In this document: positions 13,431 through 63,243 of the stretch, piece by piece
Position numbering within the stretch: position 1 is the stretch's first letter
How the letters are laid out: each line of letters begins with the position of its first letter
NCBI GenBank assembly: GCA_046563655.1
Contig: CM102283.1
Coordinates: 2,294,001 to 2,358,000, forward strand
Direction: 5' to 3'
DNA length: 64,000 bases
Source: Yuukianura sp. NJ FZ-2021
Lineage: Eukaryota
Notes under the pieces: model-generated
Seen by the model: the letters and a program-made list of their open reading frames with translations, nothing else
Told to the model about the DNA's origin: nothing
The model's database searches: none
Program-made: the position numbers and the translations under genes

Positions 13431-13718
13431 GCCTATGGACACAGAAGGAGCTTGGCCATGGAGTTCAATCTGCACTATGAGGGGTCAGCAGAGGTCAACC
13501 ACGTCGTTCCAGGCATGAAACATTTGTACGACCTGCACGACTCTATGAAATTTATGGATAGCGGAGAAAGTTATCAAAATATTCATGACTTGGAAGAGGG
13601 AAATATTTTTGATAGATGCTATAAAGACAATTTTAAGAAACTACAACAGGTCAAAGTCAAACGGGATCCAAACAACTACTTTGTGTCTAAGCTGTCTATT
13701 CCAATGGATTCAAAGTAG
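13431..13718 (+). pseudogene. Duplicated 3' fragment of the BBE-like oxidase (BBE domain only)
   Basis: 88-aa ORF nearly identical to the end of the 8778-9527 ORF. No FAD-binding exons upstream. Confidence 0.85.
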
Positions 13719-29500: not shown

Positions 29501-32500
29501 TTAAAAGAAAGTAGGTCATTTATGTAAATGCAATTGTAAGTAATTACGTAATTACAGTGTAATTTGCAATTCGTAATTAGTAATTACAAAACTTACTTGA
29601 AAGAGCAGAAAATGATGAGAGAGATGATCAGAGCACAAACGGAAATCAAGTAGCCTGATTCGTAAAGCGTGATGACGATACGACGCCACTGAAAAGTTAA
29701 GAAAAATGCGTTTTCAAAAAACTTTTTGAAAATTTTCAAAATTCTCAAAATTTTCAAAAAAAGTCACAATTTGAAATCTTTGCGAATCTGAATCTGACAA
29801 CTTTTGAATTTTGACAGGAAGTGCTTTTCACAAAAACAATCGAAACAAAATATTTGACTTTTTACATCTTGACATTTGCAACCTCGATGACACTAAGCTT
29901 TTCATGTCAAAGATGTAAACAAACAAGTTTTTGTTCAGATTCAACATTGTTTTGTTTTTTAAAATGACATTCCTACAAAAAAAAATCAGTTTTCGAAATT
30001 TTGAAAACTGCTTACCTGCAAATCATCCAAGTCCACACAGTTGGTGTAATTTGACCAAGTTCGATTGTTGTCTGCTCTACGAAACCAATTTCCATCTTCA
30101 CCGCAAGACTTATGCCCAAATCCTATTAAAAGCAAATATACAACTTTTCAAAAAATAATCTTCTTAATTAACTTTTTTTTGAAAAATATATTTTTAGTTT
30201 TGTATAACTTTCTACCAAAATGAGATTTTCTAATGGCCTTTGAGATCAAAGCACCTTTAATGAGAAATTTGACTCTCCGGAGATATTAGATCTATCAGTT
30301 TCCTTTCAAATTTTGAAATCAGAAAGAGGCTTTTGAGAATCTTATTTTCAAAAAATATTTGAAATAAGGAGAACTACGACTCAAGTCATGAAAAGCGTCT
30401 ATTTCAAATGTTCAAAATTCAAAAAACCGAAATGTGAATGTCTTTTTGAAATGAGAAACCCGGGTTTCTTTTGCACTCACTTTTGGTTAAACCTTGAACC
30501 TTCACAGGCAGGGTATCTCAGTGTCTTTTGTTCTTTAGACCCCGGGGAAATTCAAAATGTTAGATTTGAAAAAACGCACACTTTTCTTAATGCAGCACCC
30601 AAAAAATCTCACTTGCGTTTTTTAAGATACAAAGTTGAGATTCACACATTTTTCAAATTCCATAAACTTCAGATGGTTTTAAACTAAAATTTTTTCTTAA
30701 TTCAAAAATTTGAAAATTCCCGTTCCCCCAAAGGTAGCTTGGGAAACCCTGCTTTTTCAAATAGAATTTTGTCCAATTACATTTAACTGTACAGACAAGA
30801 AGCGAAAAGACATGGCGGGATATGTCAAGTTTTTGAAAACGAAGAACAAGGAGTTGTATTTACAGCGTGTTTCTTTTCAAGCCATCTTCTCCAAAATGTC
30901 TGTTTGAATTTTCCCTCTTCTGGAAAATGTCTTTTCCAATTTTCCTTTAGTTTGTTTTTCAAAACGCGCTCCAAATATTTCTCAAATTCAAATATTTGCT
31001 TTTCATGCTTCAACGAGCACAAAATTTCCAATATTCGTCTCTTCTTGTTTTAAATTCAAATAGTACATAACCTACAAACTACTGTCGCAATAACTTTATT
31101 TGATGCTCAAAAATGGCAATGTTGAACAAACAAGAAACCATTTCCTTTAAGAAAATTTGAATTTCGAAAATTTCTTCCGCTTCAGTTGTAAATCTTGACA
31201 AAACAGGCATTGGTCCGTCCATGAGCAAAGAGATGCTGGCGAACAGGTTTGCTAATTCTCTGTTTTCCGTACAGAATGAGAGTTTCCAATTTGGGAATTT
31301 TTTCAAAACCAAAAACCACGGAAATATCTGAAATCCATTCGCCCAAACCGCGAAGTACGAGAGTTTCCAATTCTAATATGAAAAACATGACATTTTCATT
31401 AGTAATGATAAATGGTGGAGGAAAATTTGAAATTCCGATGGCGGAAAAATTCAAATTCCCTTGAGCTCATGACAAGAGTTATTAATGAGAAATGTAATAA
31501 CGTACGACTCATTTCTCCAATGGCGTGCCCTGTGATCTCATACTCCGGCTCGTGCAACAGGAAGTCTTGGTGATGAGTGAGTCTGTTGATTGAACTCTGG
31601 CTGATGCCCGTTACCCCTCCGTCGGTCAGAGTTGACATGTTGACCTGCAGGTCAAAGGTCAAAGGTCACCAACATAAATTACATTCTAAATTTGACATTT
31701 ATTATTATAAAAGATTAAATGGTGTAAGGGAATATGGTAGGAATTAAAATTAGTCAAGGTCAATGACCTGCCAGGTCAAAGGTCAAAGTTCCGGATTAAG
31801 GTTAGGCCTTAAGTAGTTCTAGTTAGTTTTCGTTAAATGGAGTAAAAATGCTAAAGGCCAATGACCTGTAACGTCAAAGGTCAATGATCTGCGGTTGGTA
31901 TTAGTCAAGGTCAGTGACCTGCCAGGTCAAAGGTCAAAGTTTTAAATTAAGATTAGGCCTTAGTTAAATGCAGTCTTAGTTAATGGTAGTAAAATATTAA
32001 AGGTCAATGACCTGCAAAGTCAGATGTCTCAGTGTTGGATAGCTTTCCATGAGGAGTTGAAATTCGCGGTTTCCAATTTGAACTTGGCTCATGTGCGAGT
32101 ACAAATTTTCTGGTCGCACGGCCATGTGACCTCCAATGGAATTCAGCCTCGGGCCATCGACTATCGTCAGTTCCGAAAGTCCATTGAACTTTTTCACGAG
32201 TGGCTCCAAATTCAAATTCAAAAAGTGGGGATTCATAATTGCGATGCTCAGAGAAGCCATTTTGGGAAACGTCAATCTTTCATCGCTCATCCAAAATTCC
32301 CGCAACTCTTTTGTGCGTCGACTATGAACGCTGATTGCAAGGGCACGAACTTCTTGATACATTGGATCCTGCATACGGATTGAAATTTCGGGAATGACCT
32401 CTTGACCTTCTAGGTCAGTCAAGTGCAGACCGAGGTCAATCACTGCAGGGTGAACAAGGTGAATGACTTCTGGTGTGACCGGATCTGGAATGCCTTTGAG

Positions 32501-35500
32501 CATTGCATCAAACAGCATGTGAAGTCGATCGTCCGATGATGGACGCATGACGATTGTTCTCAAATGGAGATATTGAAGGGCAAGAAGATTTTGAATAAAT
32601 GGCAAAAACTCGCGCTCAATTGAGTCCAGACTGAGCCAAAGGAAGTTGAAATCCAAAATTAAGTGTTTGAGTGCAGTCAAATTGAATTGGCCTTTGGCAC
32701 GGTTGAAATACTCAACACATGATAGGACAAAGTGATCAAAAGATTTTCGCGGCGCATCGTCATTGGTGCACCGAATGGCCAGTTTTTGAAGTGAGTCACG
32801 TGAGTGTAGTAGCGTTTCGGCCAGGGAAATCCAAAACATGGTGAATTCCTTAACGTTTTTCCGATCAGCTGATTCTTCAGTTTTTTCCGGTCCTGGTGTG
32901 ACTTCAATTTCTTCAAGCGAGTTTGGTGCAAGAGATTCGCGTAAAAGTGCAAGTAAAATTCCCGTGTTCATGCCAAGTCCGGTATCTTCGATCCGCAATT
33001 TTTTGAATTTGACTGAATATCTTCGAAATTCGCGGATAAAATCTTGGCTGATCTCCATGTTACGAGTTCTCGGACTCTCAGTTCCGCCTGTAAGAGTCTG
33101 GATCAGCTGTTGAGTCAGAGGTACAGTCTGGAAGTAGGCGCCTTTAGTGTCTATCAGAGTCTCCAGGCCCTTGAAGTACGTCAGAAACCGAATAAGAGTG
33201 TGCCATTCTACGCAGCAACATGTCAGGTCAAGGGTCGTGACCCCTTTGAACAAGTCTTGCAGGAACCCTTCATTCCAACTGCTCAGGATCAGCTGGATAT
33301 CGGCTGTTGTGGCGTTGCGAATGACCAAGGTAGACCAGATATTTAGTTTGTTCAGAGAAGTTCGGATGTAGTCGACGAAATCCGAACCGGAATGGGCCTT
33401 TGGCTGGAAGAGGAGCCACGGTTTGAGGAGTGCCGCCGCCGCGGTTTCAGGACCTTCCAGGTTCGGATTGAAAACGAACGCGGTAGACTGGCGAAAAGCG
33501 GGAGTTGAAAATGTGTACCAGTTTTGACATACGCAGCGACACGAAATGACGTCACGACCTCGCAGATTTCCAAAAATTTGACTGTAAATTTTGATCTAAA
33601 AATCAAAAATGTTGATGTGAAAAAATTTGGTGATCTGGAAACTCTAAGCTCGACACAAAATTTAGACAGAAAAAATAAAAATCGTGAAGCATAAAAATAT
33701 TTTGCATAGAAGCATAAATTTTGATCTTAAATTCAACAGTACTATTTTGAAAAAGTAAAAAATTATAAAATTATAAGTTTTTTTTTGTGTATTTGGCTCC
33801 AAAATTTCTTTGAAAAAATCTTACGTAATTCAAAACTTGATCGTGCGTGGGTTTCCTTTGAAACGGAGATATGAGCTGCTTGATACTTGACTTCCGCGTG
33901 GGAATGCGTGATTTTGCGTGACTTGATGCTGGTGTAGAGTGAATCGATTGGTTGACACTTTCAGCCATTAGAGCCTGAGGATTGTTGACTTTTGAGGACT
34001 TTCCAGCAGAAGATTCTGCTTTCTCCTCCTTCAACTTTGTCTTTTCAATTTTACTTGGCTTGGGTTCAGCTCGGTCCAAATTTTGATTTGCATCTACTTC
34101 AATATGAACCGGCGGAACAAAGTAGTTGATGAAGTCATTCAGTGAGTCTACGACAAATCCCACCCGGCTCTTGCCCTCTTCGGCTTGACCCGAACTTGAC
34201 CTTGACTCATTTTGTTGATCTGACGCTGACCCCAATTCACTTTCTCGGCTTTCACTCAAGTCCGCAACTCCCGGGCTTCTAAACAGAAATCCGGCTATTT
34301 TAAATTGACTATAACAAATTTTGACCATTTTTTTGAAATTTTATGACTGCAAGTTGACAGAATTTTATAATTGCAAAAATTGCAAATTGAACTTACAAAG
34401 TTGGTGGCAATTGTGAATCAATTCCTTCTTGTGTCTCGTCATTCCTACTACTTAAATTGTCCATCTTCCCACACCAAAATTTCAAAATTTTGAAACTCCC
34501 ACTTTCACTTGTTACACTCACAGAAAGTCAAAATGTACAAAAAAAAATTTTTTCTAAAAAAAAGTATTTTGAGTTTATTTACTGCTAACAACTTAGGTTT
34601 CCGTAGCAATTCTCGTCATTACAAAATTTCAAAATTGTATAGCTTTCGTGTTCTTCACTTTTCAAAAAATTTTAATACGGAACTGCAAAATTTTTAATTT
34701 TTTTTCATACATTTTACGGCTGTTTAAACAAAAATTAATCCGGAACAGTTTTCTTTTGAACCTTTGTTCTCTCTCGAGTTTAATTTGATTAATACAAGTT
34801 TCAATTTTCAAAGACAGCGCAATTTTCAAAACGAAAAAAAATGAAACGCTTTGTTCATTTCCCGCCGTTTTTTTTAAAGAAGTGAGCTTTATTAGGTTAG
34901 AGAAATGGCTCCCCATTTCTTTTGTTCTCTTAAAGCTAATTTCCCTCATGGAAGATTCAGAAGGCTTGTCTAAAAATAGAATTGAGTTTTCTCCTACTCC
35001 TCCGCTCATGTAGACGCCGCCTCAAAGTGAGCGGGAATTTTCAAAAGTGTGTTCGTTTATGGCTTCGTTTGAAGACAGAAGTCACAAATTGTACCAATTT
35101 TGGGAAACCACTGTAACCAACCGCATCTGACTCATTCACTGTTCTAAGATTTCATTTGATTGTAATAAAAGCTAGTTACTTCCGCCTCCTCAGCAAAGAA
35201 ATAATTGGCACGCAAAAGTTTTTTCGAGTAATAAATTTTTGGCGGGAAATAAAACAATAAAAAACATACGCGTGGACACAAATCCGGGAATCCACGATGG
35301 ACAAGGAGCAAACGCCACAGTTCCAGCAGCAGTTCGGTTCCAGCAGTTCCAGCCATCAAAAGTTTTCGGACAAAAAACGCCTTATGAAGCAAAAAAAATT
35401 AATAGATTTCAATGAGTTTTAGTATAAACTATTTTTGTTTTGAATAGTGAATTTGGATAAGGAATTTTGAAAATTGATGACTTTTGAACCGTCGTTTGAC

Positions 35501-44800: not shown

Positions 44801-45333
44801 ATTTTGCGTCAAGTTAAAATTGTCTAGTTTCCCGCTGTTTGTGTTTCGTATGAAAATTGAGCCACACTAATCCTCTGAATCTTCTGAGAACTTAAGAGAC
44901 ACAAAAAGACGCCTACCATCTACCAAGCATTGGCCATGATTTTAGTTTTAGTAAAACATTACACTATTATTTATTAAATATTAAAATATTAAATTGAATT
45001 AAATTGAAATATTAAAATATTATAATTCAATACAAATTATGTATACTACCACTAACGCCGAACTAAGCAGACTTGCGGCCTACACTTCCAAGCAAACGTT
45101 TTATTAAGCACTAAATTTCTGGGCATGTAATGGTAAAAGTCGTTTCTGGTGAAAGAATGCGTTTACGTGTTCGTGTTGCAGGATTGCTGTAAAGTTATGC
45201 AAAAAACGTAGTCAAGGACATGGACAGGGACAGAATCTGTGATCCCGATCTGTATCTGCAGAGATGAGTTTACTATGCTTAGGAATAACAATGGAGTTAC
45301 TGTCAAAGATCAGTAGGAAAAGGTAGATGGTGA

Positions 45334-45996
45334 GGTTGCATGCCATTGGTGCGAATGAATTGGTTCGAGGCGCAATGGTGCGAATGAATTGGTGCGAAAC
45401 CAATTGTGCGAATGCTGCATAGGTGCGAAAGAGCATAAATGCGAAACCAATTGGTGCGAAAGATTAATTTGTACGAAAGATTATTTGCCTTATATTCGGT
45501 AAAACGGCGCTGCAATTTTTACAAATAAAAAATCCTTTGAAATCAATCTTTAAGCGTGAGGACCAACAGAAATTAATAAATTATTGTTATTATGCTAACC
45601 AAACCTAACGCGCGCCTTCGGCGCGGAGATTTTAACAAAGAACAATATTAGGTATAGGTTATACTTGAGATCCTCATTCCGCATGTGAAAGTCACATTGT
45701 TAATTACAATGTGACGTAGAGTCTTAATTAATCAATGCTACACAGAAAGAGGTGTGACCGCCAAAAACGGATTTCAGATTCGGAATCTGAAAACTGATAT
45801 TAAAACAAGTTTTTATTCGTAAAAATCGCAGCTCCGTTTTACCGAATATAAGGCAAATAATCCTTCGTACCAATTAATCTTTCGCACCAATTGGTTTCAC
45901 ACTTATGCACTTTCGCACCAATAAACCATTCGCACCAATGCAGCATTCGAATCAATTGGTTTCGCACCAATTCATTCGCACCAATGGCGTGCTACC
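45334..45996. mobile_element. Foldback MITE with TGGTGCGAA subterminal arrays
   Basis: Ends GGTTGCATGCCATTG...CAATGGCGTGCTACC. Near-identical to 52678-53422. The flanks share only GGTGA. Confidence 0.88.
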
Positions 45997-46543: not shown

Positions 46544-48185
46544 ATGGAGTCTGAACAGAAGACGAACGTTTGTCAAATGCCGACGAAATGGAAGTGGATC
46601 CTTTCTGGAGTCATTTGGTACTGCACATTCTCTCTGGTAAGGAAAATGTTTGCGCATGTGTAAACTCATTTACGTTACAAATGCTGCCCATATCTATAAA
46701 AGCATTTCGCACATGAGCAAAATGCCTCAAGTACGTTACTATACGCAAGATCTGTGCTAAAATCGTCTGAATTTTGAAACAGGGTCTTGGAGTGGGATTT
46801 ATTGGATCATCGTTGATCGAATTGAGCAAAAAATTTGGCACGGACATTCCAACGTTATCGAGAGCCTTCACTGTACTCACGTTTTCATTCCTCCTTGGCG
46901 CCATTATCTGTAAGTTAATTAAAACACCATTAAATTTTGAATCGGAATTCAAATTTGCCTCCATTTTTTATTTTGAAATTTCAAAGGTGGAGTGGCATTT
47001 AACTATGTAAACCGTCAAATAGCCTCAGGTCTTCTGCTGCTGTTGATGGGTGCCGGTACCATTTTGATGCCGCTGGTACCGACGGTACCGTTGTTCTTTT
47101 TAACAGCGGGAATCGTGGGATTCGGCGGTGCTGGATACGATACGGCTCAAATCGTCTGGATCATTGAAATGTGGGAAGCTCATGCACCGCCGTACATTCA
47201 AACGCAACATTTCAGCTACGCCGTTGGTACCGTCGTGAGTCCACTGCTCGTCAAATCGTTTTTGCCGCCAGAGGAAAAGGACGACTCGGATTTAATTTTT
47301 CTCGAACAAAACAAACTTGCTTCTGCGCAGAACAATACTTCTGAAGCTTCTGCGCAGCTCGACACTCTACTGTACACAAGTACTTCACCAGCATCCGGGC
47401 AATTACCTTACTCACCAACCCTATATATTCCTTTTCTCATTGGTGGAATCGTGGCTATTGTGGGCGGAGCTATAATCCTCTTGCTCTACTGTATCAAAAA
47501 ATATGAAAAGCCGAAGCAAGTTGAGGGGTCAAAGGTCACCGAAAAGGTCAATGACCCCGGGAAGTCCCGCGGTTGCAACTTCCGCAAAATCGTGCTGATT
47601 CTACTTTCTGCCGTAGTGCTCGGCACCTACTGTGGCATGGAATACTGCACGTTCCAGTTTTTGCCATCATTTTCACACTTTCTGGACTTGAAACTGTCAC
47701 AACAAGATGGCGCTTTAGTGCTCTCTGGCCTAGCTTCAGCCTTTACCTTAGGCAGGTTAGTCGGTATCTTCATAGTACTTAAAGTTCCGCCAGAAATCCT
47801 GTTGCTAGGCAACAGTATACTCATATTAGGTGGCAACACTCTGTTGCTATGCTTCGCAAATACCTCTGCTCCTCTTCTCTGGGGTGGATCTCTGACGCTG
47901 GGTTTAGGCTTCTCTACAGTTTTTCCAGCTTTTTATGGCTTCATCGAGCGACATCTAAAAGTGTCCAATGTCGTGGGTGCTGCGATGATCGTGGCGGGAG
48001 GAGTCGTGTCAAGTTTGTATCCAATTGTGATTGGCTCTCAGATTGAAAAGAACCCACTAATTCTTATGTATACAAACTACTTCAGTTTGGTCATGTCCAT
48101 GAGTGCCTTTTTCATCATCTATGTCATGACTGAGGTCAAAGGTCATCGACCTCCAATAGAATTTGACCTCCAGAATGGAAAGTAA
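46544..48185 (+). CDS. Major facilitator superfamily transporter (MFSD4/NaGLT1-like); join(46544..46636,46783..46909,46987..48185)
   Basis: About 12 hydrophobic segments. GFGGAGYDTAQIVWIIEMW, QHFSYAVG, YCGME and AFTLGRLVG. Confidence 0.85.
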
Positions 48186-49405: not shown

Positions 49406-51003
49406 ATGTGGTGGTACTGGAATGTCATCGTTTCCTGCTTTCTGATTGGTCCACCAATTGAAGCCTATGAAATTACTGACCGGCCTTTCAGTCAACTGAT
49501 ACAAACTATTCCAATTGCACCACATTTTGAAAATTTGACACTGCACCATGACCTGTACGAGGGCATTGGCAATGGAAGTCTTCAAGTGGAAACTTTTAAA
49601 GCATTCTTACAACAGGATAGACTCTATGTCCAGAATTTATTTAAACTTTTTGAAATCGTCTCTTCCCGGGAAAACGATTCAGAACGAATCAAGTACTTGG
49701 AAAGGCTTGTCCAGGACAGAGGCGTTTGGGATGACCTGTTCGCAGAACTTTTCAGCGATTTCAGCGTTCCTCCAGCGAATCAAATGACTCCAGCCACACT
49801 TGGTAAGATGCAAACAGAAAAAAATAGACTCCTATAACTCAAAACTTTTTAAAACTCACCCAAATTCTCAAATTTTTTGAATTTTTAAAACTGTCGCATT
49901 TAGATTTCGCGGGAAAACCATACATACTTGCCAAGTACGACGACCTTGGAGTTGCGCTTGCGTCGCTCACAACCTGCTTTACACTTTGGCACAAAATCGG
50001 GCTCTACTGGAAATCTTTGAATCCGGAAATTCAGGGTTCAAATCCATACAAGAAATTTGTTCAAAAAGTAGCTGAGCAGGAAGCCACGCCTCCAGAATTT
50101 CTGACTTTTGTTGACGGTTACTATGCCAGGCTGAACGGCAGTAAACCAAAAGAACTGGCAGTGAAACAGCGCATGCTCGATGCCTATACTGAATCGATGG
50201 AATTGGAGTATCGATTCGCTTGTGAAATGCTGAAAGCTCGACCAATCAACGCCTCTACAGTGTTCACTGACACGACTCCTCTCATTCTTCCAGAAATCCA
50301 AAATCAAGTGATCAATCATCCTCTTTATACTGAAATTGCATTGGGAACTTTACCACTTGAAACGTACAAAGTCCTTATACAACAAGACTATTTGTACATG
50401 CGCGGATTCTACAAAGCATACGAGTACATGGAACGGAAAGAAGCGGATTTCAATTTAAAAACGCCACTGCGAAAGGACGGACAAGATTTTTACAATTTCT
50501 TTGAATCTGAATTCAAACATTTCAATTTTGGTCCAGCGTCGGCTACAGCTCCGTATGCCCTTGGTAAGAGTTCGGATTTTAAAACTTCAGTTTAAAAAAC
50601 CACACTTTTTCAAAAAAAAAAATTGGAAAAATACACTCGACAAAAATTTAACGTGATTTCAGAGTACTTGGAGCACGACATAAGGATTGGGCGTGACCGT
50701 CCGGTGGGAGAAGGCGTGGCGAGTACCTACCCATGTTACTTCCTGTGGTTTGAATTTGGCGCCAAAGTTAATGAAATTGCCGCCAAAATGCCGTTTCCCA
50801 ATCATCCCTACCAGACATTCCTGGATAGTGTTAAACCAAGTTACAACGAAGACAGTGTTGAAAAGGCCAAGAAAACGCTGAATCAATACTACAACTCAAG
50901 TTCATTGGAAGGAAAGTACCGAATACTGCAAGTCATTCGGCAGAGCATCTTTCATGAACTTGAATTTGCTAACGGAGTGTATGGACAACGATACCACTTT
51001 TGA
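49406..51003 (+). CDS. tenA: Signal-peptide-bearing tandem two-domain TenA (thiaminase II / TENA-THI4-PQQC family) protein, copy 1; join(49406..49802,49904..50563,50663..51003)
   Basis: Two repeats of the TenA N-terminal motif (HHDLYEGIGNGSLQVETFKAFLQQDRLY; HPLYTEIALGTLPLETYKVLIQQDYLY). Cys motifs TTCFTLW and YPCYFLW; NPY/HPY; ELEY/ELEF. N-terminus MWWYWNVIVSCFLIGPPIEA. Confidence 0.85.
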
Positions 51004-51572
51004 AGTTCCCGAAATGTCAACATTTGGAACTTTTGTTTGGAGTCATTTCATGAAAATATAAAATTGTGTGTGTAGAATTTTTTCTTTTTACTTTTTAGTT
51101 CGTATTTTTACGGTTAGACAGACAGACATACAGAGAAATGTCATTGCATAAAGTAGCTTTAAGTGCATAACAATTTTTTTTTATTAAAACTGATAAAAGC
51201 AATTTTTCCGTTGAATTTTATGCAACTAACTGAAGTCGTAATTCATGAACAAATCTTTCAACTTTCGTGTGTTATCGCTGAAAACCTTATAATATTTTTT
51301 TAGACTCATTTCTTGGAAAACGACAGTTAGTTGTGCAGCGTTTTGCTGGCAGTTATTTATAGCATTTTCGAATGAATTCTGAACGTAACTGTAATTCTAT
51401 AAAAAGAGTTTCCAGCGTCATGATGTTGTTCAGTGTCCAGAAAGCTTTCGTATTACTCAAAAAGAAATTCACAATACAATAATAATACCACACACACAAC
51501 AAATTTTTATACAAAAGTTTTACATTTTCATTTTGCATATTTTGCAGCTACTGCGTTGTTGGTGGTGCGAAG

Positions 51573-53848
51573 ATGTGGATATACTGGAGTGCCATCGCTT
51601 CCTGCTTTCTGGTGATTGGTCAACCCCTTGCAGCCTACGACATCACAAACCAGCCATTCAGTGAGCTGATCGAAACAATTCCAATTGCACAACACTTTTT
51701 GAACTTAACGGTGCACCATGACCTGTACAAGTGTATTTTAAACGGGAGTCTTCCAATGGACACTTTCAAGGCGTTTTTACAACAAGGTCGACTATATTTA
51801 CTGACTTTGTTGGACATGGAGGAGATAACCACAGCTAGGGAAGGCGGCCCAGAGCGGCCAAAATTGTCGAGACCACAGCAGGATGTTAGGGACATGTTAA
51901 AGCGTTCTATGGATGAATTCCTCGGGGACTTCGGAGTTCCGAAAACAAATCAAATGACTCCAGACACTCTAGGTAAAATGTAAGAATTGGTAAAAGATTT
52001 TGCTAAATTATTAATTTTTTACCTCTAGATTTGGCGGGAAAACAATTCCTTATTGCAAATTACGACGACCTTATGGTTGTGGCTGCTTCTGTTGTATCCT
52101 TCATTAAAGTTACCCATGAATCCACACTTTACTGGAAAGCTGTGGTTCCAAATCCAGAAACTCCGCGTTCGAACCCATACAAGAAATTGATTGCACCAGT
52201 TGTATTTTCGGACAAGGATCCGCAAAAGGTTCTAGCTTCTATTGACGGTAACTACGCAAGACTCAACGGCAGTGAACTAGCAGTGAAACAGCGCATGCTC
52301 GATGTGTACACTGAATCCATGGAACTGTATTATCGCTTCACATGTGAAATGCTGAATGCTCTACCAATCCCCGCCTCCGCAGTGTTCACCGACATGACAC
52401 CTCTCATTCTTCCAGAAATCCAAGGTCAAGTGATCAACCATCCTCTGTACACTGAAATTGCACTAGGCACTTTACCACTTGAAACGTACAAAGCCCTTAT
52501 CCAACAAGACTATTTGTACATGCGCGGATTCTTCAAAACTTACGAGTACATGGAAAGGAAAGAGGCAGATTTGAATTTCAAAGAGTCACTGCGCAAGCAA
52601 GGCCAGAATTCCTACGATTTTTTTGAATCTGAATTCAAGCAGTTCAACTTTGGTCCAGCCTCGGCTACAGCTTCGCAGGTTCCATGCCATTGGTGCGAAT
52701 GAATTGGTGCGAAGCACAATGGTGCGAATGAATTGGTGCGAAACCAATTGGTGCGAATGCTGCATTGGTGCGAATGGTTTATTGGTGCGAAAGAGCATAA
52801 GTGCGAAACCAATTGGTGCGAAAGCTTAATTGGTGCGAAAGACTAATTGGTACGAAAGATGATTTGCCTTATATTTGGTAAAACGGCGCTGCGATTTTTA
52901 CGAATAAAAAATCCTTTGAAATCAATCTTTAAGCGTGAGTACCAACCGGGATTTATAAATTATTATTATTCTGTAACCAAACCTAACGCGCGCCTTCGGC
53001 GCGGAGATATAACAAAGAACAATATTTGGTATACGTTGGTTATACTTAAAATTCTCATTTTGCATGTGAAAGTCACATTGTTAATTAGAATTTGACGTAG
53101 AGTCTTAATTAATCAATGCTACACAGAAAGAGGTGTGACCGCCAAAAACGGATTTCAGATTCAGAATCTGAAAATTGATATAAAACAAGTTTTTATTCGT
53201 AAAAATCGCAGCGCCGTTTTACCAAGTTTAAGCCAAATAATCTCTCGTACCAATTAATCTTTCGCACCAATTAGTCTTTCGCACCAATTGGTTTCGCACT
53301 TATGCTCTTTCGCACCAATAAACCATTCGCACCAATGCAGCATTCGCACCAATTGGTTTCGCACCAATTCATTCGCACCATTGCGCTTCGCACCAATTCA
53401 TTCGCACCAATGGCGTGCTACCGCTTCGCATGCCCTCCGTAAGTTAAAAATACAATTTCAAAAACATTTTTTTTTGAAATACAATTTTGAAAAAAAAATA
53501 CGTCTAGAGTACTTGGAACACGACATAAGAATTGGGCGTGACCGTCCGGTAGAAGAGGGGGTGGCTACACTGTACCCTTGTTACTTTCTGTGGCTCGAAC
53601 TTGGTGCCAAAATGAATGAAATTGCCGCCAAAACGTCATTTGTGAAACATCCATACCAGACGTTTTTGGACAGATTAAAATCAGAACGTATCCAAGACAG
53701 TGTTGATGAATTCAAGCAAACGCTGAATCGCTACTACAATTCGACATCTCTGGAAGGAAAGTATCGAATGCTCCAAGCCATTCGACAAAGCATTTTTCAT
53801 GAACTTGAATTTGCAAATGGAGTGTATGGACAACGATACCATTTTTAA
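51573..53848 (+). pseudogene. tenA: TenA two-domain paralog, copy 2, with exon 2 interrupted by a MITE; join(51573..51972,52029..52677,[MITE+TSD],53431..53438,53508..53848)
   Basis: Colinear with copy 1 and with the same introns. A 745-bp insertion near the end of exon 2 gives a stop at 52702. Domain 1 has QQD->QQG and lacks the Cys. Confidence 0.8.
52678..53422. mobile_element. Foldback MITE with TGGTGCGAA arrays inserted into a tenA copy 2 exon
   Basis: Perfect 8-bp TSD GCTTCGCA (52670-52677 and 53423-53430). Termini GGTTCCATGCCATTG...CAATGGCGTGCTACC. Confidence 0.93.
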
Positions 53849-54733
53849 AGTTCCGCGCCAATTCAACATGTTGAATGATTTCATGAAATATTAAATAAAT
53901 TGGAATTAAAAAGAACACAATTGAAAAAAAAATCCCTCTGTGAATTTTTTGTGGAAATTGTGCTTTACTTTAACTTATTGTGACCCACAGTTTTTAGATC
54001 TGTCGAAAACTGAAACTATAGAATTTTGGTCACTGTCGTTTTGCAAATACATCAAATGAATTCCGCTAAGAGTCATTTTGAAGTCTAATTTTTCCAAATA
54101 GAAATAAATGGCTCCACAACATTGTTCTTATTATTCGTTACATCTAATGAGTTCTGAATTTTCATATTCTGTAGCAGAATAAATCATGACGCATCTTATT
54201 CAGTGTGAAATGATTTCAGCGTTCATGGAGTTGGAGATTTAAAGCGTTCAGGAATGCATATTACAAAATTTCAGAACTACTATTACACATATAGCAAGAG
54301 CTAACTTCTGCATTTACTACTTTGCTTTAACTTTTACTACTCTAAAATCGGCTGCAATAGACTTGGTGGAAATAGTAGTTCAAAAGTAGCGAAAAACTAT
54401 GAACAAATAAAAAGAATGCAGAGAAAGTTTGAAATAATTATTTACTATTATTTGTCGAAGTTAATGAGTTTGTTTAACACATGGTAAAAATGAGGCAATT
54501 TACTTTGGGGCAATATCCTCAACTGTATCAATAAATTTAAATATAATCATAAAAGTCAAAAGTTTCAACTTTTAATTACAGTGGAGTCACTGTATGTCGC
54601 CTCATTCTGTAATTAGACTATGCTGTTTTAAGATGAGAATGCCCAGCGTTCGGGCTGGGGGTACGCCAGTCAATCACCTCCTCTGGACACTGTGGAATAG
54701 CTTTTTTTTTACTTTTTATTTTCTTTAGATATA

Positions 54734-54967
54734 CAGGGTGTGGCACGTAAAAGTAAACACTTCAACAATAAACAACTTGTTTATTTTGCGGAATTTGACT
54801 TGGTATGTTCGAAAAATTGACGTTTTATGAATGTAATATCATGATTTAAATGAAGGAAAGTAAAAATTCATGGTCCAACTCCCACTCTTCCACGGGAAAG
54901 TCGGTTATCCAGGGCTTGTAACTAATAGCAACTAATTAGAAGTGTTTACTTTTACGTGCCACACCCG
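54734..54967. mobile_element. Tc1/mariner-type MITE
   Basis: TA TSD. ~30-bp TIRs CAGGGTGTGGCACGTAAAAGTAAACACTTC / GAAGTGTTTACTTTTACGTGCCACACCCG. Confidence 0.88.
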
Positions 54968-55285
54968 TATAGGATATGTATTCTGTTTTTTTTAAACTTA
55001 AGAAGCCAATCTGTTTCTGTCTACTACGGCTAAATACACCCCAAAACGTAACTTTACAAACCCCACAAAAGAATACAGACTCTTTTCCTAGTATTTTTCA
55101 TATTTCACAAAAAAAAATGAAATCAATTTGTGTTTATGTCAATAGCCAACGGCCGAATACAACCTTAACATAAGCAATAAGCATACAGACAGACACAATC
55201 AAGATTTTGTTCAGTATTTTTACATAGTACAATATAATCCCAAGTAGCCAATCCTTGAACCAAATCCTCTCCTGCAACTTCAAAA

Positions 55286-55843
55286 TCACATAATACATTC
55301 CTTTGGTATTTTCTCAAAAGTAGCATTCCGATTGGTATTCAAAGTCAACTCGGGGAGACCAGCTCTAGCTCTTATCTCGTTTACCGCTTCTATTGTCACG
55401 TTCTTAGCTCGCTGCTTGAAGTCGTCTTTGATCTCCTTCAAACAATTTTAAAGTATCAATTGGTCAGAATCCACAGGGATTAGTAAAAAAAACTGTAATA
55501 ATCAACAAATAACGATCACAATATCAACAATGCTGGTTGCCGTTGTTACCTGTTCCAATAGTTTTTTGATGCATTCTGTAGGGTCAGGCGTAGTAGGTGG
55601 AGTAGGAGAAGCCGCGACGGTCCGTGGTGTGGTCCGATAAGTCGTTCGGTATGTTGGTTCAGAGATAGTATCGCTGATCGCCTTTGTTGCAAAAAGACCG
55701 CCGAATAGTCCACCAATCCATAAGGCCGTCTTGGAAATGACGGGTGCTAATACCGGAATTAAGACAGGTATCGCACCCTCTGCCTCATTTACCAAGAATG
55801 GAAAAAGAGCACACATTCCCACCAAAATGTAAACAACCTTCAT
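55286..55843 (-). CDS. Small secreted protein of unknown function; complement(join(55286..55435,55550..55843))
   Basis: Signal peptide MKVVYILVGMCALFPFLVNEAEGA, a hydrophobic Gly-rich segment, a T/P-rich linker, and an in-frame second exon (EIKDDFKQRAKNVTIEAVNEIRARAGLPEL...). Confidence 0.6.
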
Positions 55844-57336
55844 GTTTCTGCTCTTTTTGGCTTAAGGAATCTAAAGACTTCAAAATTTGGTTTTGAATTA
55901 GTCAAAAAAAGTAGTTGGATATTTGATTAGTCAAATTTTGAGTAATCCAAATGGAAAGTTTTTGAAAACTCTCAATATTCTACAAACTGTGGAGGATGAA
56001 AATCTACTCGGTGGTTTTATAGGAGACTTTCATCATAAAAATTGTACTATTTTTTCATTAACGTGACCTAGCACGTTGAAAGAGGTCACAAGCCTACCTT
56101 TCAATGAATACTTGATCTTCGAGGTCATCTTATTTTGCATTTCCAGAGAATTCGATAAAATCACAATTTTTGTTATTGAAACCGTGGAAAATTTTTAAAG
56201 CAAAAACATTTCTTGGAAAATGATAATCAAATGCGACTTATTCAAAATTACGTTTCAAAACGTAATCGGAATCACGCGCGATGCACAAAGATGCACATAT
56301 CCTTAATAAAGAGCTGTAAACGCCGTATGTAAGTAGCGAAATTACCGAAGGCTTGTGAGGGTGACCTGCATTTAAAGCAGTAGGTCAAAGGTCATCTCAA
56401 CAAACGTAGTTTTGTCCTATACAAACGTTGTTTGGCTCGATGTAACGAACAACTTTTGTAGAGGCAATAATACTTTTTTTTCTGTCATAAAGGTAATTGT
56501 CCTTGACCTTTACTCCGGAAGTTTTGCATTCCAGGTCAAATTTCAAACCGATATCTCAGAGCATGTGAAGTTCATCTGTGAAGACAGATCCAGAATCGGT
56601 TCAACGGTTATAGTTATATTGGTAAGCAGACACACAGACAGACAGACAAAGTCGGCCAAAACCATAAAGAAGTCAAATGCTTCAGCAACATAATTAAAAA
56701 ACATTTTCTGAGAAATTATTAAGCAATCGTTTAGCAAGCACTTCAAGTGCGATAGGCTGTTTTTAGGTTAAACGGATCTAAAAGTATTTAATTCTTGCTA
56801 AATCTAAATCTTGCTCATTGGAAATTCCCAAATTCAAAGCTAAGTTCACCAAAAAAATAGAACTAAACTTTTTCAAAATTGATAAAAGCAAACTTTCCAA
56901 TGAATTCTATCATATTTCTTGTGAAAAATGTCGCAACTTTTGCCCCTTAAGTATGCATTTGGTTGGAAATAGACAATTGTGGCGACATAATTCTAATCTA
57001 ACCAGTGTACGACGAGAGAATTCAAAAAGCCGAGTCGATACTTACAATTCAATATCCCTGAGAGGAAAGAGATTCTAAAAAGCGGAGCATTTTTCATGAA
57101 ATTGAATCTGCAAATTCTATTTTTTTTCAAGATTTCATTAACCTTTATTTTATTTATTTAGTAAAGTTAATTAATAATTTCCAGGAACTTGCAGATTCCC
57201 TTTCTAATATTTGTAAGTCTTTGTCACTACGCTACTAAAAGTACTTGGAACTTCGTAAGTCTTTTGATTATTGGCCGGGAGGTTTGTCCAGGTCCAGGTT
57301 GATCCAGTTTGTCTCTGCTTGAAATTGGCCGCGCAG

Positions 57337-59558
57337 TCACGGTCGTATCACCCATTGTTCTTCTGCAGGTACCTCCTTGACCTTGAATTCTGGAAAGATT
57401 GTGTCCGGATTTAAATTCGCCAGCTCATCCATATATGCTGTGCGAAACGTTCCTGTTATAAAACAAACACAAACGTTGTTAAAACGCGTCAAACTTACAT
57501 CATGTCTCGAAGCAAGTTCTAAAGAATATAGTATGTATACCTGGTCCACGAACATCGTTTCTCACTCCTGCATGTTCACCGGCCAAATTGGCACAAACGA
57601 TCCTACAAGATACAAAAAAAATCATTTTCGAGAAATTTTTTCCAAAAACAAAGCTGCAGATACCAATAACTTCTTTAAAGTTAAGTAAAATTAAGTATAG
57701 CAGAAGTGACATTTTTGTTCTTACCCGGCAACAGCTGCTGCAAAATGATCTTCTGGCGAAATTCCAGCAAAAGAGGCCACGATGGCTGACACCATACAGC
57801 CTGATCCAGTAATCCTCCCTTGGTACGGATGTCCATTCTTAATTGCCACAGTTCTTGTTCCATCAGACACGTAATCCACCTTGCCGGTCATGGCCACGAC
57901 ACATTCTACAAAAAAAGACATTGTGAACAACCCTGCATTGATTAATTGCAACGATTAATTAAAGTCAATCAGCGTGAATTACGTTCTCGCTTGGCCAGAT
58001 CCGCAACAATAAGAGCTGGATTTGAAACTTCTCCGACCGAATCTACTCCACGCATTTGCACGATTTCCTCTGGCATGTAGCATCCAACAATTTCAGCCAA
58101 TGCCAAGATTTCACCACAATTTCCTTTGATAATGTCAACATGGACGGAGTTCATAATCCTCTTTGCTGTTTCTCGACGAAGAGTAGTCGCTCCAGCACCA
58201 ACAGGATCCAGAATAACTGGTTTCGATTGAGCATTGGCATGTTTTCCTAAATGCAAAAACACAAATTCTTAAAAATCATTATGCTCATGATTAATAAATA
58301 ATTGACAATGATAATTAGGCGAACCTGCTTCTATCATACACTCCACAACAGGTTCAGTCAGAGTTCCAATGTTAAGGACAACTGATGAGACAACTTTGGA
58401 TAAGTCTTTGGCTTCTGAAGCATCGGGTGCCATGATAGGAGATCCACCAATGGCAAGCGTACAGTTTGCAGTGTCGTTCATAGCAACATAGTTTGTGATG
58501 TGATGGGTGAGTGGAGTGTTTTGTCTCAGGGTGAACAATAATCCTCGGACAGACTGTAAAACTTCTTGGACAGAAGTAACATTTCTTGTTTGAGGTTCTC
58601 TGGCAGCAGTTTTTCCCGCTTTGACTTCATCTACCAGTCGAGCAGTAGCGGCTTTAGCATCAGGAGCAGCCACGATAGCCGAAACTACTGCGACTCCGTC
58701 CAGAAAACGATGTTTGTTAACAGCTGATGCCCGGACTAGACGTTGAGCATTGTCAATTGTGATTCCACCAATACCGACCGCCTTGATCCTGGAATTGTTC
58801 AGTACTTGCAGAATACTTCGCACACCGATGTGACCCAGGCAGGGAGATGTAGTCACCCTTGTGTCTGTTTTGTAACATGTTTGGATTCCAAGGTAATCAG
58901 CGCCGTCTTGGATAGCAATTGTCGCCTGGGACGGTGTTTCAACTGATACGCCAATGATCTTCGTCGGTCCTAAACGTTGCCGGGCTTCAGCACAAGGCAT
59001 GTCATCTTGTCCGACGTGAAGACCCTCCGCATCAATGGCAATGACAACGTCGATATTGTCGTTGATTATAAGTGGAACGTTGTGCTAAAAAACGCAAAGA
59101 TTTAAACAATTTCTTAATTGGGCTTCAATTAATTGAAGGCATCCCTAAATCCAACTAAGTACCTTTTTAGTAACTTCATGGATGTCCCTTGCAAGCGTAA
59201 TAAAATCTTCAGTACTCAAATTCTTCTCTCTCAACTGAACAATTTTCACACCTCCCAGGATTGCATCTTCAATTGTCTGCGTTAGAGTTCTGGAAGGATG
59301 GTTTAGTCCAGAGTCAGTGACAAGGTAAACGCTAAGGTCGATGCCATCCAAAAGCGACGGAGGAAGACCAACGTTGTCCCTGAATCAAAATAAGAGAAAA
59401 TCATGATTACCAGCATTTTGTTAACTACAAATCACCATTGATTTTGACTAATCTTACAGCGGTTGTGGTTGTGACATTCTTTCGAAAATACGATGCCCTC
59501 GTCCTCTGCCTCGCCCAACTGGACTAGTTTCCATTGGTACAGTGTCAACGTTACTCAT
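57337..59558 (-). CDS. THI6: Bifunctional thiamine-phosphate synthase (ThiE) / hydroxyethylthiazole kinase (ThiM), fungal THI6 architecture; complement(join(57337..57452,57541..57602,57725..57905,57983..58246,58325..59084,59163..59379,59458..59558))
   Basis: ThiE motifs: LSVYLVTD, IVQLREK, PLIINDNIDV, GLHVGQDDMP, IIGVS, GADYLG, GIGGI, DGVAVVSAI. ThiM motifs: HHITNYV, ANCTLAIGGSPIM, LNIGTL, ILDPVGAGAT, IKGNCGEI, ITGSGC, GPGTFR. Seven exons join in frame. Confidence 0.93.
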
Positions 59559-60569
59559 TTTTACGTGAAGCGGTTATCGTGTCAGCTCAGCACCCAGTGC
59601 GGTTGTCCACGGATTTTGAGAATGGATATAAGATGACGAAATGTCTCCAGTTGCCTATAAAGTTGACATAACTTGGAATTGGATTTATCTTTTTTTCCAA
59701 GAATCTAAGGCAATGACTCACCCGATAACGGAGTTTCACTTTCAACTAGTTTGGCTTTAACACCCTTTTAGCGAAATTGTAGCTATTGGCTAATGTTGCA
59801 TTTGCAGCGATTGCAATTTTTTGGTGAGATTTGCTTCCTCTTGCACTTTTGCACATCCAAAAGCGCCAGCGATCACGAGAGAAAGTGAGTAAAGGGCAGA
59901 AGGGCACCTATAAATAAGAAAGATGATGATGTAAAAGTTGTAGATGGTATTGGTGGTTCGATCCGGAGCGACTTCCAGTCACATTCTAAGACTCCGCTTA
60001 CCGGTATGTACAGTGATAGTTTTATGTTCTGGCCATGCAAATGAGCTTAATCTAAGCCACTCCTCCATGTCTCGGAAAAACTCCCCATCGATGTTGTTTC
60101 CCGCCGAAAGTTTGTTTCGGTTAACGCCTGAGGATCCGTCGTTTTTAGACGGTAAGCGAGCCGGAAAGTAGCCGATCGTCCACAAATAACGATGTGCTGT
60201 GCGGGCCAATGAGTGAACTATCGTCATGCTCAGCCTTTTGCTCACTCTCTTCACTCCGCGAAGTTTCCCGCCTAAAATTGTCGGCGCGAGCTTGATTTTA
60301 CGCGTAATTACAGGAAACTACGCAAAGTTTGAGGTAGTGACTGAGGTAAAGTCGACACTTCAACCTATGTGGTTGGACCTATGTAGGTCTAACCATACGC
60401 CTACTATGGTGTATGCCACATGTCCCAAATATGACATGATTCGTTTGGCAGTCCGTGCCTAGCCTTTTTTAGGGTGATTCTTCAACGCATCAACGCTGGA
60501 AGATTGCCCGTTGGTTAGTTTTTGACGACATTCAATTTCGTAATTTGTGAACTAGAATACTCTTCGCCG

Positions 60570-61350
60570 GTCGCGAAATTTTGTATTAGGCAAAATTTTG
60601 CATTTTCGAAATTTTGAATTACGCGAAATTTTGAATTACGCGAAATTTTATTACGCGAAAATTCACATCTCGGGAAATTTGCATTTCGCGAAAATTTGCG
60701 ACTTTTGGTAACATCGCGTCTTGAAGGGTTAGGGTAGCCGAGAATTCCAACTCAAGCGCCGTCGCCATTTTGAATCCCGCGAATTTTTGCGGCTCTAAAT
60801 AAGACCTCAGCGCGTACAGCGAATTTTGGAAAAGTGACGTTGTTAGCTACAGAGACCGCGCTCCCGCACCCGATGACTAAAATCATTTACGATACTCAGC
60901 GTTCATAAGAATTTCACGTCGCCAAATTACTTCGCGCCAGTATTACGTTTTTCGCGATTCCGGCCGTGAAATTTGGGCAAACATAGGTCTAGTGTTCAAC
61001 TGCTGGGGTTTTCATTTGTACGATTGTTCATGCTAACGCCGTGCACAATTTACGTATCATCTGCGTTTTTATTTCGCGAAATTTGACGGCGCAAATCGCG
61101 GAAAATGTAATACTGGCGAAAATGCAATTTGACGACGTGAAATTCTTCAGAGTACGGAATATTGTGTGCGATTTCAGTTCGCGTAACTAAAGACAACTAT
61201 TCGCGACTTGCGCCGTGAAATTTTCCGACGGATTCAAAATGGCGGCGGTACGTCGGAATTAGGGCTCTCCGCAACCATATACCCGAATGGACGGCATTTT
61301 CTGAAAAATCGCGAATCGCGAATCGCGAATTTTTGCGAATCGCGAATTTT
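60570..61350. repeat. CpG-rich nested foldback structure inside the DD41D element
   Basis: CGCGAAATTT arrays at both ends. Inverted pairs GCCATTTTGAATCC/GGATTCAAAATGGC and AATTTCACGTCG...CCAGTATTAC/GTAATACTGG...CGACGTGAAATT. Confidence 0.65.
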
Positions 61351-62021
61351 TGCGTCGTCGGAAACCAACATGGCGGCCATCGCCCATTGGTTTATGTGAC
61401 TACTTCCAACTATTCTGAATATTGCATTTTTCCTACAGCATCTCATCGCCGAAAGTAAATCCTAGCGTGCCCTCTTTACCCGTTCCACTCTGGTGTGAAG
61501 TGGCCTTTACGGGCAGAAAAAACCCGGGAAAATTTCAAAAAATTGCGAAAATTTTTTTTTTTTGGAAATCGTTTCAAAATATGGAAGAATAAGTTCCGGA
61601 AGTAGTTTTGGAGATTAAAATTATTTTTTTCTAAAAATCAGCGATTTTTATTCAGCGCGAAAAAAGGCTGTCGCCTATCGTCTACTGGTAGGGAGGTCAT
61701 GCATTAAGAAGTTAGCGCGGCAAATAAAAGTCAACCGACGCTTTTTCTTTGCTTCTTGGCTATCAGTTTTGCTCTGCTGTTTTCTAGTAAAAGTTCACTA
61801 GTTAAACACTAAATATTATTGAATTAAGTTGCCGTACGACAATTAAAAAGTGATCTGCACGTGAATTGAGCGAGAATAACTTCAATTAAGGTGAGTGAGC
61901 CACTTCTATTGTTTTCTAATTCAGTTATTGGTACTACTGCATTGTGAGAGGGGATTTATGTCGCAAAACGAAAAGTTATTTGCTAATGGCTACTATTATA
62001 TTTTGTTTTGGCAGTTAAGGT

Positions 62022-63243
62022 ATGCCTGTCCATTACTCGGAAGAGCAGCGCCTTTGCATAATTAATCTTCGGTTGGAGTACAAAGATGAAACCAGTACCG
62101 AGCTCATGCACAAATACAATCAAAATCCTATCTCGCAAAATCGACCTATGGAGCATCCAAAAGATGTGAACCGAATTCTTAAACGATTCTCTGAACTGGG
62201 TAACACTAAAAACCGTCGAAAATCTGGAAGACCAAAAACAGCGACAGACGAAAACTCGGCAATAGGGATTCTTGGGGCTTTTGCGGCTGATCCTCATATT
62301 TCAACCAACCAAGTTGCTCGTGATATGGGTGTTTCGCAAACGTCTGTTATGAAGGTGAAAAATCAGTACAACTGGAAGTCCTACAAACCTAGAGTCCATC
62401 AACTCCTAAAATTTACGGACTATCCTGACAGAGCCTGGTTTGCAAGAATTTGGCTTCCAATGCTAAACGGAATACCTGACTATGCGAAAAACATCGTCTT
62501 CACCGACGAAGCAACTGTAAAACTGGACGGAACTGTTAATCGGCAAAACTATAGATACTGCTCGGATACGAATCCGCATTGGAATGTCCCAGGTTAGACT
62601 TTTAAAAAAAGGTGACTTAAAAAGGAATAGTTGTGTTTTGCAAAAAAAATCCCCTCCATAACTAATTAGTGAAAACTATGGTGGGGTATTGATGCCATGA
62701 TTTTTTCTTCTGATTTTAGTTAAAACTCAATCGGCCGGAAAAGTGAACCTGTGGGTTGGTCTTTTTGGTGACGAGGTGATTGGACCAATATATTTCAACG
62801 GGAATTTGACGGGACAAATGTACCTGACCATGCTACAACAACAAATTGTGCCTGCAATTTTGGCTTCAGCAACACGTCAAAACATTCCACATGCTGACAT
62901 CATTTACCAACAGGACGGTTGTGGGCCGCATTTTTCATTAATTGTACGAAACTACCTAGATCAGACTTTTCCCCAAAGGTGGATTGGACGTGCCGGTTGG
63001 TTTCATTGGCCAGCTCGTAGCCCAGATTTTTCGCCACTTGATTATTTTGCGTTTGGGACAATGAGAGGGAATATTTTTTTACCGCCAAGACCTGCCACTG
63101 CGTTGGACTTAATGCGACGAATTGACGATTTTTTTCATGTGCACGTTACGCCTGAAAAACTCAGAAATGTAAGAGACGATTTCCGTAAACGTTTACAACT
63201 TTGTCTTCAGGAAAATGGGAGTCATTTCGAACATTTAAAATAA
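62022..63243 (+). CDS. DD41D transposase with one spliceosomal intron; join(62022..62592,62720..63243)
   Basis: RRKSGRPKT, HTH-like STNQVARDMGVSQTSV, IVFTDEA, YQQDG and WPARSPDFSPLDY. There are 41 residues between the 2nd and 3rd catalytic Asp. A phase-1 GT-AG intron restores the frame. Confidence 0.9.

Follow-up and report, generated by a model that had tools for sequence, protein, structure and literature searches.

Animals are textbook thiamine auxotrophs, and the only documented exceptions that we found in print are the cyst nematodes, whose thiamine genes are of bacterial type. Globodera rostochiensis carries transferred thiD, thiE, thiM and tenA genes under consecutive numbers (GROS_g07352, g07353, g07354 and g07355), together with thi4 and a second tenA, and tenA is up-regulated during parasitism (PMC4901422); transferred thiamine genes were first reported in Heterodera glycines (Craig et al. 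2009, cited in PMC4901422). Here we analyze a 64,000-nucleotide stretch (the window) of contig CM102283.1 from the Yuukianura sp. NJ FZ-2021 assembly GCA_046563655.1. Here, in the genome of an invertebrate animal, a span of 10 kb contains a fungal-type THI6 gene, which encodes a ThiE-ThiM fusion, and two tandem paralogous genes that each encode a doubled TenA protein. The preliminary description of the locus stated that animals generally lack ThiE and ThiM, a rarity that needs qualifying. The cyst nematodes provide a precedent, as their genomes, too, are animal genomes with tenA, thiE and thiM at neighboring positions, and it is in its parts that the window differs: the nematode set has thiD and separate thiE and thiM (PMC4901422), whereas the window has a fused fungal-type thiE-thiM, no thiD match among the 50 open reading frame pieces scanned and a TenA of secreted type with tandem domains. 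A transferred thiamine module in an animal is not new; the differences lie in the host group, the fused fungal THI6, the tandem-domain TenA and the separate origins of the two families.

Hydroxymethylpyrimidine (HMP) is set free by TenA, which acts on aminomethylpyrimidine or, at a slow rate, on thiamine. Hydroxyethylthiazole is the substrate that ThiM phosphorylates, and ThiE joins the thiazole phosphate to HMP pyrophosphate (HMP-PP). In fungal THI6 the two activities are fused in the same order, ThiE and then ThiM, as in the window gene. TenA of Bacillus subtilis (thiaminase II, or aminopyrimidine aminohydrolase) is a cytosolic single-domain oligomer; the window TenA proteins differ from it in having two domains per chain, a signal-like N-terminus and N-glycosylation sequons. 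Thiaminase I belongs to an unrelated family with base-exchange chemistry, which is not PF03070, the family of the window TenA proteins. The thiaminase I of Paenibacillus thiaminolyticus is reported to be extracellular and to act on thiamine (PMC5627462). Our literature searches turned up no paper on springtail thiamine genes, on the transfer of THI6 into an animal or on a secreted form of TenA, and, as far as these searches reach, the extracellular, covalently doubled TenA architecture has not been described in print. The word "thiamin" is absent from the main text of two springtail genome papers (PMC4987106, PMC5490193), whose supplementary tables of horizontal gene transfer may list such genes.

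Gene models of TenA-1, TenA-2 and THI6

The gene models were obtained by reading splice sites from the sequence and checking them by translation. No internal stops remained, provided that a miniature inverted-repeat transposable element (MITE) was removed from TenA-2. The three models are as follows:

49406-51003, plus strand: TenA-1, 465 aa; exons 49406-49802, 49904-50563 and 50663-51003 (Pfam PF03070, translation)
51573-53848, plus strand: TenA-2, 465 aa without the MITE; exons 51573-51972, 52029-52669 joined to 53423-53438, and 53508-53848 (Pfam, translation)
57337-59558, minus strand: THI6, N-terminal ThiE and C-terminal ThiM, 566 aa; seven exons (59558-59458, 59379-59163, 59084-58325, 58246-57983, 57905-57725, 57602-57541 and 57452-57337) and six introns (Pfam, translation)

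Pfam searches of ten exon-sized pieces of these genes bore out the claim that two TenA-family genes and one ThiE-ThiM fusion lie in 49406-59558, and the interval runs precisely from the start codon (ATG) of TenA-1 to that of THI6. Of the six plus-strand pieces from 49.2 to 53.8 kb, five scored above the 22-bit cut-off of TENA_THI-4 (PF03070): all three from TenA-1 (28.5, 36.7 and 26.3 bits) and two of the three from TenA-2 (28.8 and 28.9 bits). Exon 1 of TenA-2 gave no TenA match by Pfam. The four minus-strand pieces from 57.7 to 59.4 kb matched TMP-TENI (1e-33 and 7.5e-12) and HK (4.5e-25, 1e-19 and 2.3e-19). In the piece 58269-59084, ThiE ends and ThiM begins within a single frame (TMP-TENI 1e-33, HK 4.5e-25), and the THI6 model is a single polypeptide with TMP-TENI (PF02581) followed by HK (PF02110).

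All three genes had been said to contain spliceosomal introns, and all ten introns (56 to 122 nt) indeed have GT..AG borders, although intron 2 of TenA-2 (53439-53507, 69 nt) was judged by eye. The six introns of THI6 measure 77 to 122 nt, and both introns of TenA-1 are in phase 1. The eight introns whose composition was measured are AT-rich (24-32% GC). The GC content at third codon positions (GC3) is 0.38 in THI6 and 0.44 and 0.46 in the TenA genes, compared with 0.39-0.49 in ten other open reading frame (ORF) pieces of the window; the GC3 of all three genes is therefore within or at the edge of the host range.

THI6 groups with Mortierellomycotina

A word-index search with the large THI6 exon returned 321 proteins, and all 93 organism-named proteins among the best 120 were from fungi. 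Ranks 1 to 19 all belonged to Mortierellomycotina (53-60% identity); the best matches after them, from Mucorales and Kickxellomycotina, reached 48% at most. We built an unrooted tree of 41 rows, which comprised the window protein and 40 of the best 120 of the 321 matches (11 Mortierellomycotina, 6 Mucorales, 4 Kickxellomycotina, 4 chytrids, 6 Ascomycota and 9 unnamed). The window protein was sister to all 11 Mortierellomycotina, with a Shimodaira-Hasegawa-like approximate likelihood-ratio (SH-aLRT) support of 99. To exclude an outgroup position, we also built a tree of the ThiM domain rooted with three bacterial ThiM sequences from metagenome loci. In this tree the fungi were monophyletic (100), the chytrids branched first, and the window protein was again sister to the Mortierellomycotina, here represented by nine sequences (99). 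Both trees were quick searches under LG+G4.

Because the protein falls deep inside the fungi, as sister to Mortierellomycotina in both the unrooted and the rooted tree, its sequence identifies THI6 as a transfer from a Mortierellomycotina-like fungus. Identity is 65% over 514 columns with Mortierella alpina and, in the ThiM part, 72% with Entomortierella. The window protein branches outside the sampled crown of Mortierellomycotina (M. alpina, Entomortierella, Podila and Dissophora, among others). A metagenome scan with the THI6 exon found 26 loci, all of them distant (31-55% identity over part of the query), and no close relative; none of ten ORFs adjoining the thiE/thiM matches in these loci was ThiD. 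The gene would be a clear case of fungus-to-animal transfer, for which grazing on Mortierella-like soil fungi would be a plausible path.

Of the 94 columns that do not vary among eight diverse fungi, THI6 keeps 90, TGSGC among them; it departs from the fungi by A120V, K182R, V307A and L510V. The protein may be active, as judged from these residues, and has no hydrophobic N-terminus. It is unlike fungal THI6 in lying in an animal genome, in its six short AT-rich introns and host codon GC, in the change within the T-x-T-K motif (K182R) and in an N-terminal extension of about 40 residues with an RGRGRG run. The model needs a predicted short first exon (59558-59440, minus strand), which supplies about 34 residues, and no fungal homologue has the RGRGRG run.

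Each TenA gene encodes two TenA domains

The two TenA proteins are tandem paralogues with 69% amino acid identity. The preliminary description counted two TenA-family genes; each of them encodes two TenA domains, not one. In TenA-1, a signal-like N-terminus is followed by a first domain (D1, approximately residues 21-246) and a second domain (D2, approximately residues 247-465); this is the split used for the tree, and another alignment placed it at residue 252. Within each protein D1 and D2 are 27% identical. The proteins had been described as secreted, and a signal-like hydrophobic stretch is present at the N-terminus of both. The same stretch occurs in all five full-length family members (Kyte-Doolittle, KD, 2.0-3.1, versus 0.19 in THI6). 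There are six N-x-S/T sequons in TenA-1 and four in TenA-2. These sequence features suggest that the TenA proteins are probably secreted.

Alignment to solved TenA chains showed that D2 of TenA-1 keeps the QQDYLY, PCY and HELEF motifs. In both genes, the Cys of PCY and the C-terminal Glu of D2 align with B. subtilis TenA, and Q-D-Y-L-Y aligns with archaeal TenA structures. We take the residues aligned in D2 to be the catalytic Cys135 (the nucleophile), Asp44/Tyr47 and Glu205 of the B. subtilis enzyme. D1 of TenA-1 keeps QQD..Y and a Cys. In the domain tree described below, the D1 branch of TenA-2 is eight-fold longer than that of TenA-1 (0.76 versus 0.092), and one of the paralogues in the springtail Folsomia candida also lacks the D1 Cys. 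Between TenA-1 and TenA-2, D2 has a ratio of nonsynonymous to synonymous substitution (dN/dS) of 0.19 and D1 a ratio of 0.31; dS is 0.6-0.95. On the basis of these residues, D2 looks active and of the cysteine type (TenA_C-like).

The fold was examined on a 462-aa family member (P0138) and not on a window protein. The AlphaFold model of P0138 had a pLDDT of 89.7 and a pTM of 0.58, the latter meaning that domain packing is unsure. The best 12 Foldseek matches of this model were all TenA/THI20 chains (TMt 0.8-0.87), and B. subtilis TenA (PDB 1yaf, 1yak, 2qcx and 1tyh) shares the fold at a TMt of 0.82. In sequence, the resemblance is very low, with E of about 0.4-0.6 to the B. subtilis chains and 1.8e-4 at best, to a Pyrobaculum TenA.

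Origin of the double-TenA family

A HMMER search of 1.84 billion representatives with TenA exon 2 found 46 proteins at E <= 1e-3, nine of them at E <= 1e-10. The hits included proteins of 462, 401, 467 and 677 aa, long relatives that a word-index search with the same exon had missed. Among ten clusters that were looked up, the only organism named was Folsomia candida (OXA55099.1, 467 aa, and OXA39136.1, 677 aa); its proteins are 31-36% identical to the window TenA proteins. A further relative is the 462-aa protein, a "thiaminase" on contigs of 1.6-1.8 kb. The Folsomia and 462-aa relatives share with the window proteins the signal-like start and both TenA domains. The name of OXA55099.1, "ThiED", seems misleading: the protein aligns over its whole length with the double-TenA proteins, which appears to leave no room for ThiE or ThiD domains. 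In OXA39136.1 (P0186), which is annotated as an aminopyrimidine aminohydrolase, about 200 residues after the double TenA do not align to the family and may represent a gene-model fusion.

The domain tree had 41 rows, comprising 12 half-proteins and 29 representatives with a single domain (190-260 aa); fragments below this length and two proteins longer than 500 aa were left out. The two-domain family was separated from all single-domain proteins with a branch support of 100. The D2 halves formed one group (97) and five of the six D1 halves another (96), so that each Folsomia domain groups with its window counterpart. Since the D1 and D2 groups extend across lineages, the doubling is older than the lineage split, and the duplication into TenA-1 and TenA-2 is specific to the lineage of the window; the gene duplications are thus lineage-specific on each side. 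The introns of D1 and D2 occupy the same aligned column in the same phase, which indicates that the domain duplication copied an intron and therefore took place in a eukaryotic genome. The family is a clean example of a domain duplication that can be assigned to a eukaryotic genome from the position of a shared intron.

No donor of TenA could be identified, and the 29 closest single-domain relatives carry no organism names. The sequence comparisons place the origin of TenA before the arrival of THI6; TenA may have been transferred or may be an old animal gene that was patchily retained. The preliminary description had proposed a horizontally acquired cluster. The trees bear this out for THI6; for TenA, which has no identifiable donor, transfer is no more than a possibility, and acquisition as a unit does not stand, as the origins differ. 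As a lead only, Atlas lists TenA-family clusters dominated by Cnidaria and plants.

A MITE interrupts the assembled copy of TenA-2

Two copies of one MITE family were located in the window:

52678-53422, strand not assigned: MITE of 745 bp inside TenA-2 exon 2 (inverted repeats and target duplication)
45333-45990, strand not assigned: second copy of the same family, upstream of a major facilitator superfamily (MFS) gene, 86-95% identical to the TenA-2 copy (repeat search)

The copy in TenA-2 lies nine nucleotides before the exon-2 donor. Its terminal inverted repeats are 252 nt long (93%), and an 8-bp direct duplication, GCTTCGCA, borders it at 52670-52677 and 53423-53430. The assembled copy of TenA-2 is interrupted by the MITE and reaches a stop after 357 codons.

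Four DNA sequencing runs (X1, X2, X3 and X5) from two studies were compared with the locus. In X1 the word depth over the MITE is about 25-fold that of its flanks, which, together with the second copy, identifies the element as a multi-copy host repeat and agrees with the statement that host MITEs surround the genes. One contig each in X2 and X3, which are from the same sample as the best-covering run, joins 52669 to 53423. The joint is an exact empty site with a single copy of the 8-bp duplication. The MITE-free joint is absent from the contigs of X1 and X5. In their downstream part the MITE-free contigs show 17-18 letter differences and six gaps. A MITE-free form of TenA-2 thus exists in the same sample, either as a divergent allele or as an extra copy.

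A possible thiamine salvage module

We give an even chance to the proposal that the locus is a salvage module, in which secreted TenA and cytosolic THI6 rebuild thiamine from scavenged pieces. TenA would be exported through the secretory pathway and would work extracellularly, with the gut lumen as the most plausible site, where D2 would hydrolyze aminomethylpyrimidine, and more slowly thiamine, to HMP. Inside the cell, the kinase domain of THI6 would phosphorylate hydroxyethylthiazole, and the synthase domain would couple the thiazole phosphate to HMP-PP, yielding thiamine monophosphate that ordinary animal enzymes would turn into the cofactor. The step from HMP to HMP-PP would need a ThiD-type kinase, which would have to be encoded outside the window. 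The two gene families would have arrived separately, and their proximity would reflect either selected linkage or an accident of a region rich in foreign genes. D1 would be decaying in some copies (TenA-2 and one Folsomia paralogue) and may be only a covalent partner for D2. If true, the scheme would represent a second, mechanistically different animal route to vitamin salvage, in an arthropod-like soil animal. It raises the questions of growth on HMP plus thiazole, of the role of an extracellular TenA and of the co-regulation of the linked genes. The more far-reaching claim, that a soil invertebrate partly escaped vitamin B1 auxotrophy through a fungal THI6 and an extracellular doubled TenA, with which it would gather the remains of degraded thiamine from soil or food and reassemble the vitamin, and that selection kept the separately acquired genes together as a metabolic gene cluster of an animal, is more doubtful, and we put it forward tentatively.

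Several observations weigh against the salvage module. Its weakest link is the HMP phosphate (HMP-P) kinase, because a Pfam scan of 50 ORF pieces from the window gave no match to ThiD (PF08543), a search in which exons shorter than about 90 aa outside the pieces could be missed; this is consistent with the preliminary description, which had also noted that the kinase is not in this window. To our knowledge, the TenA enzymes described so far are cytosolic and an extracellular role has no tested precedent, and the signal-like call on the window proteins is one of hydrophobicity only. In D1 of TenA-2 the Asp is replaced by Gly (QQG) and the Cys is gone, and the assembled TenA-2 frame enters the MITE and meets a TGA at 52700-52702, before the D2 Cys. 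In THI6, the K182R change sits in the T-x-T-K motif of the synthase domain, and four residues before it a Gly has become Gln at a non-invariant position. No THI6 named from any animal was present among the best 120 of the 321 matches. Furthermore, the cluster was not acquired as a unit, because THI6 is 65% identical to Mortierella and TenA belongs to an older, divergent family. Finally, TenA-2 and THI6 are convergent, with their 3' ends facing each other over 3,488 bp of repeat-rich sequence, so that TenA and THI6 share no promoter.

The alternative that survives best, which we consider unlikely but serious, is that the two families function independently and lie close together by coincidence. 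A secreted double TenA would then be a digestive or defensive hydrolase, and THI6 would by itself serve the salvage of thiazole and pyrimidine or have another role; TenA may destroy thiamine to starve microbes of the gut or cuticle, or may detoxify pyrimidine antivitamins. The difference in age between a TenA that is shared with Folsomia at low identity, with no donor, and a THI6 so close to Mortierella fits this explanation, as do the convergent orientation and the distance between the genes. The two Folsomia double-TenA paralogues lie on different scaffolds, and an extracellular site is ill-fitting for the usual cytosolic salvage role. In addition, the window contains tandem FAD oxidase genes of the berberine bridge enzyme (BBE)-like family, of plant or fungal type, which suggests that the region may collect unusual genes. 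These points are countered by a rough estimate that, in a genome of a few hundred Mb, THI6 would fall within 10 kb of TenA by chance in about 1 of several thousand cases. The TenA product, HMP, is the precursor of the THI6 substrate, and both the tandem arrangement of TenA and the THI6 locus are retained in organism B, which was sequenced in a different study.

It is improbable that past transfers left these genes as decaying relics, with a pathway made incomplete by the lack of an HMP-P kinase and with genes that are silent or being lost. The MITE truncation of TenA-2 in the assembled haplotype, the loss of catalytic-type residues from its D1, the missing ThiD match in the window ORF pieces and K182R in THI6 are all consistent with decay, but the three frames are otherwise intact across 13 exons. 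The retention of 90 of 94 fungal-invariant residues in THI6 and the dN/dS of 0.19-0.31 between the TenA paralogues argue against it, as do the persistence of the MITE-free form of TenA-2 and the conservation of the locus in organism B, at 86-98% likeness.

Integration of the locus in the host genome

Fungal or bacterial contamination, or a chimeric assembly join, is hardly credible, even though THI6 is 65% identical to Mortierella proteins and no single contig in the compared runs links the animal genes to the region in its full length. The six introns of THI6 are AT-rich (24-32% GC) and its GC3 resembles that of the host, TenA-2 carries a multi-copy host MITE with a second copy near an animal MFS gene, the neighboring genes are animal genes, TenA relatives are annotated in a springtail genome, one X1 contig covers THI6 and both of its flanks, and organism B shares the locus and its intergenic flanks. 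The X1 contig is 5,156 nt long. In organism B, a contig of 1,329 nt runs from TenA-1 exon 3 into TenA-2 exon 1, and TenA-2 exon 3 and THI6, the latter together with its 3' flank, are covered by further contigs; likeness is roughly 86-98%. In the compared runs the contigs break at repeats, and none spans the whole region; stretches lacking coverage were not counted as evidence. Contig coverage, MITE, introns and organism B thus support integration of the genes in the host genome and speak against a contaminant or chimeric contig, which the preliminary description had named as a possible refutation.

The neighbors had been described as ordinary animal genes, and exons of SNF8 and of a class B G-protein-coupled receptor were indeed matched. 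The SNF8 exon matches human SNF8 at 1.6e-8; one exon of the receptor gene matches 7tm_2 (1e-6) and another matches calcitonin receptor chains (7e-15). The Pfam match to enoyl-CoA hydratase (ECH) is weak. Pfam also found a sperm-tail PG-rich repeat in the window. The gene closest to the TenA pair is given here as context and is not claimed as part of the system:

46771-48185, plus strand: MFS transporter gene, MFSD4A/NaGLT1-like, animal-type (Pfam MFS_1)

It ends 1,220 bp before the start of TenA-1 and resembles the MFSD4A/NaGLT1 Atlas clusters of Chordata and Arthropoda; its closest sequence relatives are contigs at 68% identity.

Other features of the window

The tandem BBE-like FAD-linked oxidase genes lie at 7581-9524 and 11887-13715, and possibly 16308-17156, all on the plus strand. 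They match FAD_binding_4 (1.3e-25) and BBE (5.5e-11 and 4.4e-10), and their closest solved relatives are BBE-like or oligosaccharide oxidases of mosses, plants and fungi (1e-34). This family is unusual for an animal, and these may be further foreign genes in the window.

Just past the 5' end of THI6, contigs of X1, X2 and X3 join 60120 to 61704 and omit the 1,583 bp of 60121-61703, over which the word depth in X1 is about 80-fold that of the flanks. This segment is probably a present/absent copy of a high-copy mobile element. At 62019-63240 (plus strand), ORFs of winged-helix/homeodomain-like helix-turn-helix type (HTH_29, 8e-6) are followed by a 180-aa ORF without a Pfam match; the region looks like a remnant of a Tc1/mariner-type transposase.

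Between TenA-2 and THI6, a 119-aa ORF at 55505-55861 (minus strand) has a hydrophobic start, a Thr/Pro-rich tail and no Pfam match, and from these features it may encode a small secreted or membrane protein. A single 532-aa ORF at 32000-33595 (minus strand) begins with a weak F-box match (7e-4) and shows no further recognized domain. Three paralogous ORF pairs without a Pfam family are lineage-specific tandem gene families: 5774-6748 and 24214-25188 (plus strand, 325 aa), 18693-19202 and 20714-21223 (minus strand, 170 aa), and 19677-20186 and 22073-22540 (minus strand, about 160 aa).

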